Assembly (NCBI GenBank): GCA_949372655.1 | Contig: CASIAI010000001.1 | Coordinates: 13,279-77,278, forward strand | Direction: 5' to 3' | DNA: 64,000 bases | Origin: Candidatus Poseidoniaceae archaeon | GTDB taxonomy: Archaea; Thermoplasmatota; Poseidoniia; Poseidoniales; Poseidoniaceae | Shown: piece after piece, positions 8,285-12,603 of the stretch | Numbering within the stretch: the stretch's first letter is position 1 | Layout: each line of letters starts with the position of its first letter | The notes under the pieces: generated by a model | Told to the model about the DNA's origin: nothing | The model's database searches: none | The model's input: only the letters and a program-made list of their open reading frames with translations | Made by a program: the position numbers and the translations under genes

Positions 8285-8554
8285 TTAACTCTCGTCATTC
8301 ATTCCAACTATCTCATAGTTAGAAGGGAACAGAGCAATCGCTACTCCACCAATCAAAGCGAGTAAGCCCCAACCGAACATTTGTTGAACAAAGAGCATCT
8401 CTAATGCTAATACTACCAGTGCAAGCCCGCCAAGATTAGAAATCCAGACCAATGTTTTGAAAGTCGAAAGTGAAACACCTGTAGTCTCACCCTTTCTAAA
8501 CGGCCCGAACTCTCCACCAAAACGTTGTGCATCTGTTTTTCCATCTTCTGACAT
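8285..8554 (-). CDS. Small 2-TM membrane protein
   Basis: 89 aa with two hydrophobic helices (LVWISNLGGLALVVLALEMLF and GWGLLALIGGVAIALF). It is the last gene of the minus-strand block, 5 nt after the ferredoxin gene. Confidence 0.45.
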   Translation of the reverse strand: MSEDGKTDAQRFGGEFGPFRKGETTGVSLSTFKTLVWISNLGGLALVVLALEMLFVQQMFGWGLLALIGGVAIALFPSNYEIVGMNDES

Positions 8555-8559
8555 TTACA

Positions 8560-8892
8560 TCACCTATCTATCGTTGTAATCGCATCCGTAGGACATGCCA
8601 GTACACAAAGTCTACACCCTGTACAAGCATCTCGAATTATCTTAGCTTTACGATTGGACTCTACATTCATTAGTGGACTACGCATCTTCACTTTGTATAA
8701 CTCAATAGCATTATCATCACAGACAATATCACATTGGTCGCAACCAATGCATAAGCTTTCATTGACAAAGGCTACAACTTCTTCTCCGCCTTTAATCGAA
8801 GAATGTTGAACTCCTCTTTGTCGATTAAGTGAAGCCCGAATACGCAAAGCCTCCGCTTCACGGCGTTTGAGCAACTCATCAGCAGACGTCAT
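8560..8892 (-). CDS. 2x[4Fe-4S] ferredoxin-like protein
   Basis: CIGCDQCDIVCDDNAI and CTGCRLCVLACPTDAI. ATGA overlap with the upstream membrane-protein gene. Confidence 0.85.
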   Translation of the reverse strand: MTSADELLKRREAEALRIRASLNRQRGVQHSSIKGGEEVVAFVNESLCIGCDQCDIVCDDNAIELYKVKMRSPLMNVESNRKAKIIRDACTGCRLCVLACPTDAITTIDR

Positions 8893-9563: not shown

Positions 9564-9610
9564 ATATATCCCAGTAGATGTTCAGTATAATTGATATGCC
9601 TGATTAGTGA

Positions 9611-10825
9611 TCAGTTTTGATATGCTGAGAACTCTTTGCCCATAGCAAGCATCGAAAGTTCAGCAACCAAGGCATGCCAACCATGGGCATGCTTGCCGTA
9701 TAGGTGTCCAACTTCTGAATGACTTTGAAAAATAGCACTTGGAGAATTGAGATTCTCGATATCACTCTTCTTCTCATTAATTCTATAGAACCACGAAGCA
9801 GCCTGCCCATCAACTAAGTAAACCACAGGTTCAACTGGACCATCCGATTCAGTATTGAGACAGGTTGGAACCCCTTCTTGAATAAGGAAGTTTTCGACAT
9901 CAACTCCGCCTTTAGAATACATTAGTTTTTTCATCTTACGATTGGATAAGGCGAGTAATTCATCACCATTCTTAACCGATAAAATCCCTAAACCATATGT
10001 TCCACTATCATTCTTAATGAATACTACAGGCTCTCTATCTATCCCCATTGCTTGATATCGTGCTCCAATCTTAGCAAGGAAATCATCTACCTCTGCAGCA
10101 AGTTCAATTCTACAAGCCTCTTTTTCTAAGCATTTATCTTTAGAAACAAACCAATCGGTCATCAAATACCATGGTTCAATTCCAAGCATTTCGGCTATCT
10201 CATGAACATACTCTTTTAGTGCATCATAATGATTTGACTTTCTTCTTACGTGCCATCCCATTTGTGGCGGAGGAGATACTCTTGTTGACCCAATACCTGG
10301 CACTATTCCTTCTGTTAGGTCATTATTTAGCAGAATTAAATCTGGTCTCTTACCATCAACAACAATACCTTGTTCGCCATCAAATTCCTTTAATTCGACA
10401 TAGTCTAGTAGTAATGGAGCAGATAAACCATCTATTGAACCATGACTTTGCAGTTCAGGAGAACCGACAGTACATCGAAAACCTGCCTTAGAAATCAATC
10501 GTTGAAGAGTGCGAAGATTCTCCACATATGCTGCATTTCTAGTATGTGCTTCAGGATATAAGTGAACCCATTTACACGTCTCATCTCTACGTAAAATATG
10601 ATTTCTAAGTAATGCTGCAAGATGTTCTTCGTCTTCTTTGGCGACATTATTGAAACCTGCAGGAAAGTGATTTGCATCAACGACTGCAATTTTCCAGCCT
10701 GCATCACGAATATCGACACTACCATAGATTGGAATTGATACTTCGCTTCTCTTTTCCTCCATCCAAGAAGTGATCTCTTCTCGCTTATCCTCAATCAGTG
10801 AGGTTAGTTCATGTAAATTCATCAT
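9611..10825 (-). CDS. Probable glutamate--cysteine ligase-like enzyme (Acidithiobacillus/Leptospira-type GshA family)
   Basis: The N-terminal [30 protein letters not shown] matches my recollection of the Pfam GshA (PF08886)/TIGR02049 family. About 400 aa. ATGA overlap with the upstream asnB-like gene. Needs HMM confirmation. Confidence 0.55.
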   Translation of the reverse strand: [404 protein letters not shown]

Positions 10826-12603
10826 ATCACCTCATCGAGTAGTTCAATTGCAGAACCTGTACGCTTACTACGCCCACCATCTAAGATGTGCATAGCCTCA
10901 AACAACCCAAGTCCAATCGCTAATTCGGGCTGACCCTCAAGAACCTTAGCAAATTTAGAATACTTTTTGCAGACCTCATCACCTCTAGGCTTTAGTTCAC
11001 TTAGAAATGCCTTGAGAAGTGAGGGGGAAGTTGCGGTTCCTGCTGGTAATTTTGGCCTTCGAACAATATCTTTGGGTAGATTGGTTAGGTCAGCTGCCGC
11101 TCTTAGCGCTGCTTTCTCTTCCATATTATTTGGCAATCTCCAGTCCATTGGAAGTTTACTTGAAGCCTCACGATGAGATTTACCTAAAAATGGTACTCTC
11201 ACCTCTAATGAATGTGCCATAGAATGCCTATCGACCAGTCTAAGTTGAAAATTACTCAACTGACCATGTTCTAATTCAAATTCTAAGAATTCATCCAATG
11301 AGGAAGTATGTTGCTCCGGCAAATGGTTGGCATTATACCAATTATCGCCTACCAGTAAATTAGAATTCAATATATCAGCAGTAACCGAAGAATCAATACT
11401 TTCGATTCTACTTCGAATTAGATTTGCATGACTATCCAAGTCACGATAGCGAGGGTATCCTGCGTGTAATTCATCAGCACCTTGACCGCACAAGCCAACT
11501 GTTACCTGCTCTCGCATTTTCTTGAATAATGGCTGGAAGAATAATACTGATACATCTAAATCTTCACCATGCCAAGCCAAATCAGGTAATGTTGATTCAA
11601 ATGAATCTTCAGGCAGTATGTATTGATGATGTTTCAAATCCAAAGTTGAGGCAACTACCTCCGCTGCTTGCCAGTCAGGGTTATCTTCACTCTCTGCAAC
11701 TGTCCAACAATCAGGAACTGGTTGGTCTGCTCTCTTAGCAGCCTCATGCGCAACTGCTGCTACAAGAGATGAATCCAAGCCACCTGAAAGTACGATTCCA
11801 ACCGGAACATCTGACATTAGTCGTTCTTGAACTGCTTCAACAAAAGTATCGAGTAATTTTTCAGCATCTGTATCTGGATTCCAAGTATCACTTGGATTGA
11901 CTTTTTGTCGCTCAACATTAGCGATAGAATGCAAGTAAGCACCCCCCGACTCTCCAAGTTTCCAAACTTCTACAGTACCAGGTCTAACTTGTGTTACATC
12001 TTTGATTAAGGTTGTTCCATCAAGGGGATATTCCCAAGCCAAACGAATTGCCAATGCGGTTTCATCCAATTGTGGAATATGACCTTCATGGCCTCTTAGT
12101 GCTTTTACTTCACTAGCAAATAACAGACTGCCATCGACTACTGTCCTAACAAGTGGTTTGATTCCCATAGGGTCTCTTGCCAAAATTAATTCCTGACGCC
12201 TAGAATCCCAAAGTGCAAAACCATACATTCCATTCAGTTTAGCAATCCATTGTTTATGGTCATCGGCTGAAGTGGTGGATAGATTAAGTTTAGACATGGC
12301 ATCTGAATGTAATGCAATTATAGATTCAGAGTCACCTCTTGTTTGCCATGAATAATTGGAACTATTACGAATAGAACGGTGGTTGTAAATTTCACCATTA
12401 GCGATCAAAACTTCGCCATCATGCCCATGCATAGGTTGTTGACTGCCATCAAGGTCGACTATTGCTAATCTGGTATGTCCAAGTGAGATGTTATCATCAG
12501 ACCAAATGTCCTGACCGTCAGGGCCTCGATGTTGAATCAATTTGGTCATACGATATACGATAGATGAATCTGGATGACCAAACATACCAGCAATGCCGCA
12601 CAT
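10822..12603 (-). CDS. asnB: Asparagine synthase (glutamine-hydrolysing)-family amidotransferase
   Basis: MCGIAG N-terminal nucleophile Cys of Ntn-type glutamine amidotransferases. SGGLDSS PP-loop. 593 aa. Confidence 0.85.
   Translation of the reverse strand: MCGIAGMFGHPDSSIVYRMTKLIQHRGPDGQDIWSDDNISLGHTRLAIVDLDGSQQPMHGHDGEVLIANGEIYNHRSIRNSSNYSWQTRGDSESIIALHSDAMSKLNLSTTSADDHKQWIAKLNGMYGFALWDSRRQELILARDPMGIKPLVRTVVDGSLLFASEVKALRGHEGHIPQLDETALAIRLAWEYPLDGTTLIKDVTQVRPGTVEVWKLGESGGAYLHSIANVERQKVNPSDTWNPDTDAEKLLDTFVEAVQERLMSDVPVGIVLSGGLDSSLVAAVAHEAAKRADQPVPDCWTVAESEDNPDWQAAEVVASTLDLKHHQYILPEDSFESTLPDLAWHGEDLDVSVLFFQPLFKKMREQVTVGLCGQGADELHAGYPRYRDLDSHANLIRSRIESIDSSVTADILNSNLLVGDNWYNANHLPEQHTSSLDEFLEFELEHGQLSNFQLRLVDRHSMAHSLEVRVPFLGKSHREASSKLPMDWRLPNNMEEKAALRAAADLTNLPKDIVRRPKLPAGTATSPSLLKAFLSELKPRGDEVCKKYSKFAKVLEGQPELAIGLGLFEAMHILDGGRSKRTGSAIELLDEVI

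Follow-up and report, generated by a model that had tools for sequence, protein, structure and literature searches.

We analysed a 64,000-nucleotide (nt) stretch of contig CASIAI010000001.1 (the window) from a Candidatus Poseidoniaceae archaeon, a member of Marine Group II (MGII; MGIIa) represented by a 1.58-Mb assembly that is 75% complete. At the centre of the analysis stands a pair of minus-strand genes, one encoding a glutamine amidotransferase of the AsnB family (593 amino acids (aa); positions 10822-12603) and the other an ATP-grasp ligase resembling the glutamate--cysteine ligase GshA (family PF08886; 404 aa; positions 9611-10825). The amidotransferase starts with MCGIAG, contains the motif SGGLDSS and matches Asn_synthase (E 1.7e-50) and GATase_7/6 in Pfam; the stop of its gene and the start of the ligase gene share the letters ATGA, with a Shine-Dalgarno-like GAGGTGAT just 5' of the junction. 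The two genes head a run of five minus-strand genes that continues with a polytopic membrane protein, a ferredoxin and a small membrane protein, and this layout, including two ATGA overlaps and spacers of 47 and 5 nt, had been described in the initial annotation and was borne out in full by the list of open reading frames (ORFs) and their translations. In marine RNA libraries, short contigs of identical sequence match portions of each of the five genes, and one of them crosses the junction between the AsnB-like and GshA-like genes; their cover is patchy, DNA carry-over is possible, and they are no proof of a single transcript. Among the five, only the AsnB-like and ligase genes form a conserved unit.

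Distribution of the amidotransferase-ligase pair

A search of 121 Poseidoniales genomes with both proteins found the ligase in 79, namely the window's own genome, all 59 other genomes of its family, the two genomes of a second small family (2/2) and 17 of the 59 genomes of a third family (MGIIb). The AsnB-like gene lies immediately upstream of the ligase, on the same strand, in all 79 of these genomes (one copy is cut at a contig end). Neither gene is present in 19 of the 121 genomes, and the ligase without the AsnB-like gene was found in none of them. Protein-sequence searches yielded, among the matches listed, close MGII relatives only.

In a sample of 151 Thermoplasmatota genomes, AsnB-like orthologs and PF08886 were limited to the Poseidoniales and one other genome, which belongs to a second, high-GC lineage from a different class of the phylum. 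This genome has an AsnB-like gene (42% identity, with the motif LCGQGSDE) that overlaps the PF08886 gene by 4 nt, and the pair is flanked by a trypsin-like peptidase gene upstream and a convergent UbiA gene downstream. When 151 genomes of the second lineage's class were sampled, PF08886 was found in 24 and the AsnB-like ortholog in 25: both genes occur in 24 genomes, neither in 126, the ligase alone in none, and in the single genome with only the AsnB-like gene that gene is cut by a contig end. One genus of this lineage includes 5 genomes with both genes and 8 with neither. The genes are adjacent at 17 of 18 second-lineage loci, the exception having both genes unlinked, and the neighbourhoods of the two lineages have no other gene in common besides the pair. 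Because the pairwise identities of the two proteins over 17 loci are correlated (r = 0.97), we conclude that they share one history. The question whether the two genes are conserved as a unit, raised when the locus was first annotated, is answered in the affirmative by their adjacency in every ligase-bearing Poseidoniales genome and at nearly all second-lineage loci. A complex prediction for the two proteins from 17-row alignments scored 0.00, which is evidence neither way.

One second-lineage genome (G221) encodes an EgtD-type methyltransferase (PF10017, 374.5 bits, at G221:C1:15164-16075), and for this reason the second-lineage ligase may also feed ergothioneine synthesis. EgtD (PF10017) was found in none of four MGII genomes, and a link to ergothioneine does not explain the MGII pair.

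The two enzymes and their relatives

The AsnB-like protein, which is about 30% identical to E. coli AsnB (1CT9) and human ASNS (6GQ3), has their two-domain architecture and shares with them the Cys nucleophile, the glutaminase residues, the PP-loop, the catalytic Lys (K518) and the residues D377 and E378 of the acidic pocket. C2, R45, N69, G70, E71, D91, the PP-loop S273-S278 (SGGLDS) and K518 are invariant in 17 orthologs. It differs from both enzymes in that Q374 (in LCGQGADE) aligns with the Glu of SGEGSDE, which is Glu348 in E. coli AsnB and Glu364 in human ASNS; the motif LCGQG[AS]DE is present in every ortholog examined, in both lineages, with the ligase present or not. The HMMER alignment, of moderate confidence in this region, further places Q453 at Asp384/Asp400 and L456 at Arg387/Arg403, a position that is shifted in this alignment, with R455 adjacent. 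In human ASNS, the pocket formed by Glu364, Asp367, Glu368 and Asp400 holds the amino group of the substrate, and Glu364 is described as conserved and required; neither the E364Q nor the E364A variant is active when given aspartate, ATP and ammonium (PMC6748925). The initial annotation had considered that the pair could make something other than plain asparagine, and the Gln in place of the catalytic Glu, the same change that inactivates the human enzyme, agrees with this. The protein also fails the E. coli-type model NF006949 (273.9 bits vs 499), and its occurrence is tied to a ligase, unlike that of E. coli AsnB and human ASNS. Its protein-atlas labels read generic asparagine synthetase only.

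A metagenome scan for closer relatives of the AsnB-like protein outside MGII yielded 21 MGII loci and, besides these, 59 AsnB-family genes that are distant and have no ligase; in these 59 the position of Glu348 is occupied by E, D, L, Q, V, I, T or A. Judged from these sequences, Gln at this position is unusual but not unique, and because other AsnB-family paralogs vary there as well, we regard it as the mark of a non-canonical member of the family and not of a broken enzyme.

The ligase had earlier been placed in the GshA family, which holds for membership of PF08886 (321.9 bits vs a cut-off of 25, E 5.9e-96) but not for the equivalog model TIGR02049, of which the cut-off is just missed (288.8 vs 293.9 bits). 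The protein also matches PDB 3K1T (E 9.6e-58). An alignment of 80 bacterial PF08886 members has 54 columns with a conservation of 95% or more, which we call the family-conserved positions; the window ligase has the same residue as the bacteria at 49 of the 54, all charged ones included. The exceptions are Y to L203, D to E217 (a conservative change), G to S344 and G to S363, and a fifth column, N168, is retained here and variable among MGII. Both main archaeal clades have Leu or Val in place of this Tyr, which 77 of the 80 bacterial ligases share, and in MGII ligases two Gly that bacteria conserve are replaced by Ser or Ala; the Tyr position is a candidate specificity determinant. In the phylogenetic tree, the Poseidoniales ligases, the window protein among them, form one clade (support 0.99), most second-lineage ligases form a clade of their own (support 0.98), and a separate bacterial clade (support 0.999) comprises 52 ligases, of which 35 are gshB-linked. 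A literature search found PF08886 mentioned nowhere, and MGII together with the ligase only in incidental mentions.

Two irregular forms of the ligase were seen in MGIIb. In genus g17 (G029, G039, G049, G105 and G119) it matches as two pieces within one frame of 378-415 aa, a pattern that indicates an internal deletion of roughly residues 127-152. Genome G081 contains a second ligase copy (L048, C24:2621-3805); its contig is 4.3 kb long, and the 2.6 kb upstream of the copy hold no AsnB-like gene. This copy is sister to the paired copy of the same genome in the tree and could represent either a duplication or a variant from another strain in the bin.

The PF08886 family is small, with 1065 representatives at 50% identity, and the bacterial comparison covered 80 loci from many phyla. 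An AsnB-family gene was found within 7 kb at none of these 80 loci, and gshB lies nearby at 38 of them and directly downstream at 20. From this linkage to gshB we take the default role of the family to be the synthesis of gamma-glutamylcysteine for glutathione, the archaeal clades having a different partner. The archaeal ligases resemble bacterial GshA of the Acidithiobacillus ferrooxidans type (3K1T) in belonging to the same family and presumably in performing the same ATP-grasp ligation; they differ in being without gshB, in being partnered by an AsnB-family amidotransferase and in forming separate tree clades.

A search with PF02955 gave weak matches and no gshB in these archaea: matches of 36-76 bits occur in 117 of the 121 Poseidoniales genomes, with the GshA-like ligase present or not, and the five that were examined are RimK-family proteins, above the cut-off of TIGR00768 and far below that of TIGR01380. 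RimK-family alpha-L-glutamate ligases were seen at L133:1169-2542, L134:1344-2273, L135:1155-2399 and L136:879-1835, some of them with long extensions (414-457 aa). A GCS2-type ligase was found in none of the 121 Poseidoniales genomes, and gamma-glutamyltranspeptidase was not found in these archaea. The initial annotation had also left room for a separate housekeeping asnB, or a gshB, elsewhere in the genome; a further asnB, asnA and gshB were all looked for there, and none was found.

Genes around the pair

The ligase gene is followed, after the 47-nt spacer, by the gene of the polytopic membrane protein (224 aa; 8889-9563, minus strand), which has no Pfam or NCBIfam family. This gene shares ATGA with that of the 2x[4Fe-4S] ferredoxin (110 aa; 8560-8892, minus strand; Fer4 E 1.8e-13, Fer4_21 E 3.7e-13), whose two Cys clusters of the form CxxCxxCxxxC are CIGCDQCDIVC and CTGCRLCVLACP, and 5 nt beyond the ferredoxin gene comes that of the small membrane protein (89 aa; 8285-8554, minus strand), with two hydrophobic helices and without a Pfam family. 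For the 224-aa protein a lycopene-cyclase-like assignment was considered and not adopted, because it came only from language-model features, which put the protein close to an archaeal cluster with the automatic name "lycopene cyclase domain-containing", and the protein has no Pfam match even at E 10. By eye, a TATA-like AATTATAC can be seen in the 47-nt spacer about 25 nt before the ATG of the membrane-protein gene; this is a tentative reading, as MGIIa loci do not conserve the spacer. On the plus strand, positions 4583-8284 of the window hold a cytochrome b gene and the gene of a protein of 939 aa that includes a CCG (HdrD-like) domain. The 212-nt gap upstream of the AsnB-like gene contains a 50-codon ORF with one hydrophobic helix (12652-12804, minus strand), and an RNA-library contig covers 12593-12772.

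Synteny maps were drawn for 20 Poseidoniales loci. In these maps the genes for the ferredoxin and the small membrane protein always travel as a pair. In MGIIb and in the second small family they come after the cytochrome b and HdrD-like CCG genes and run in the same direction as these, and at the 15 loci of these families they lie on the strand opposite to the AsnB-like/ligase pair and converge on it. The block is inverted in MGIIa only, with the 224-aa membrane-protein gene added; that protein has no homolog at MGIIb loci and is present at this locus in MGIIa only. The ferredoxin probably belongs functionally to the respiratory-type cluster of cytochrome b and the HdrD-like protein. MGIIb loci also have a gene of about 165 aa, which is not in the window, between the small membrane protein gene and the AsnB-like/ligase genes (e.g., L033:5678-6178, L035:6250-6756 and L041:10033-10557); by eye, its N-terminus is Ogt/MGMT-like (TPLGxM...GL..L.W).

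It had been proposed in the initial annotation that the membrane and ferredoxin genes might share the function of the pair. The five genes would then form one functional operon, in which the membrane and ferredoxin proteins make, reduce or export the product, and the co-directional and tightly spaced arrangement of the MGIIa genes, as well as the disulfide chemistry suggested by the adjacent HdrD-like CCG protein, would fit such an arrangement. It is, however, already contradicted by synteny: the ferredoxin and small membrane protein genes stand on the other strand, behind cytochrome b and HdrD, at the 15 MGIIb and second-family loci, the 224-aa protein is confined to MGIIa, and none of the three downstream genes was found near the AsnB-like/ligase pair in the second lineage. 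At one MGIIa metagenome locus (L164), moreover, an extra gene of about 330 aa splits the ligase gene from the 224-aa membrane-protein gene, and the tentative TATA-like element in the spacer would likewise count against one operon. The proposal was therefore abandoned, and we regard a five-gene operon as very improbable.

A possible product and its rivals

The asnO-ngg operon of Sinorhizobium and Pseudomonas makes N-acetylglutaminylglutamine amide (NAGGN). The archaeal pair is similar to it in that the gene of an AsnB-type amidotransferase lies upstream of that of a dipeptide-forming ATP-grasp ligase, and in the presumed logic by which a dipeptide is made and then amidated. It differs in that the archaeal ligase has no GNAT domain, belongs to another ATP-grasp family and gives no match to TIGR03103, that the amidotransferase is not an AsnO equivalog (TIGR03104, 224.7 bits vs a cut-off of 570.1), and that there is no third (peptidase) gene. 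As for thiols, haloarchaea have GshA without GshB and use gamma-glutamylcysteine as end-point thiol, and Chromatiaceae have glutathione amide, a carboxamide form of a gamma-glutamyl thiol (PMC7278568). The haloarchaea are a precedent for archaea with GshA and without GshB, although their GshA is of the GCS2 family, which is missing from the Poseidoniales genomes searched, and the Chromatiaceae are a precedent for an amidated gamma-glutamyl thiol. The same review names no gene for the formation of glutathione amide, and in its account of archaeal thiols it counts two other GshA families and omits PF08886 (PMC7278568).

We favour a functional cassette of two genes, which would have been inherited, gained and lost jointly in Thermoplasmatota archaea, because of the asymmetric occurrence of the two genes, their joint gain or loss in the second lineage, the differing flanks and the altered acceptor pocket of the amidotransferase. 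From the sequences we judge it about an even chance that the product of such a cassette is an amidated gamma-glutamyl compound; the substrates of both enzymes, the sequence of reactions and the product itself are what we infer as follows. The ligase, an intact ATP-grasp enzyme, would activate a carboxylate, which by the default of its family is the gamma-carboxyl of glutamate, and couple an amino acid to it (by default cysteine), and the amidotransferase, with an acceptor pocket unlike that of true asparagine synthetases, would hydrolyse glutamine, adenylate a carboxylate and yield a carboxamide. The end product should not be glutathione, because there is no glutathione synthetase; in the simplest case, it would be a gamma-glutamylcysteine amide with the role of a small thiol. 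As the ligase is never found alone and the amidotransferase sometimes is, the latter may act first on a common metabolite or have a job independent of the ligase, and the usefulness of the ligase would depend on the amidotransferase and not the reverse. We suggest, tentatively and with considerable doubt, that MGII and the second lineage make in this way an undescribed thiol, gamma-glutamylcysteine carboxamide, and that it might be the main redox buffer of MGII, one of the most abundant archaeal groups in the ocean.

Several observations weigh against a dedicated cassette. Common descent of one operon could explain part of the pairing, both lineages being in one phylum, and adjacency within the order is weak and not independent evidence, because synteny across the Poseidoniales extends to all of the 15-kb region. 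From five genera of MGIIb, 23 genomes lack the ligase and keep an AsnB-like ortholog (46-54% identity) with intact catalytic motifs, and therefore the enzyme cannot act solely on the ligase product. With TIGR01536 the AsnB-like protein scores 353.7 bits, above the cut-off of 267.1; it is the sole AsnB-family gene product in the window genome and in MGIIa genomes, AsnRS is encoded by MGII and by the second lineage, AsnA is absent from the four MGII and second-lineage genomes tested, and the sole GatB_N match in these is of the GatE type. The AsnB-like protein could simply be the asparagine synthetase. Glutaredoxin-like and GST_N-like genes, in addition, are present irrespective of the ligase, so that no thiol-using partner tracks it. 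Much of this would be expected if the pair consisted of two independent housekeeping enzymes sharing an operon, an atypical asparagine synthetase and a ligase that makes plain gamma-glutamylcysteine as the final thiol, like that of haloarchaea; the retention of 49 of the 54 family-conserved positions in the ligase and the gshA-gshB operons of its bacterial relatives would agree with that, as would the observation that gene loss tracks genome size in MGIIb genomes of 1.2-1.6 Mb, in which the ligase goes first and the AsnB-like gene next. Against this, a Gln at the catalytic Glu inactivates human ASNS and a second acidic residue of the pocket also aligns with Gln here, the AsnB-like orthologs among the 151 Thermoplasmatota genomes are confined to ligase-bearing lineages, and in the second lineage the two genes occur jointly or not at all, with 24 genomes having both vs 126 having neither. 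Some MGIIb genomes with AsnRS, moreover, have no AsnB at all: in G027, an almost complete, single-contig genome, AsnRS is present without any AsnB, which implies that asparagine auxotrophy already exists in Poseidoniales. Two unconnected housekeeping functions are the main rival explanation, though to us a somewhat doubtful one.

A functional cassette might also have a product that is not a thiol. Its ligase would then have moved away from cysteine as substrate, and an amidated gamma-glutamyl dipeptide or an amino acid amide would serve as osmolyte or for storing nitrogen, in analogy to NAGGN. The narrow miss of the ligase at the TIGR02049 cut-off, the change of the bacterial Tyr to Leu or Val in both main archaeal clades and of two Gly to Ser or Ala in MGII, and the lack of any thiol-related gene that tracks the ligase are in line with this, and compatible solutes matter to marine hosts. 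Yet the ligase keeps the great majority of the family-conserved positions, every charged one among them, a GNAT or other N-acetylating partner is absent, the amidotransferase falls well below the cut-off of TIGR03104, the model for the NAGGN amidotransferase, and there is no pointer to any particular alternative substrate. We consider a non-thiol product unlikely.

Marine Group II archaea rank with the most abundant plankton not yet in culture. The amidotransferase-ligase cassette favoured here offers a concrete two-gene target for finding its product, and the names that databases give to the two genes, "asparagine synthase" and "glutamate--cysteine ligase", are perhaps both inexact for these archaea. 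If gamma-glutamylcysteine carboxamide is indeed what the cassette makes, the compound would be a glycine-less cousin of glutathione amide, formed by a ligase of the GshA type together with an AsnB-type amidotransferase dedicated to it.

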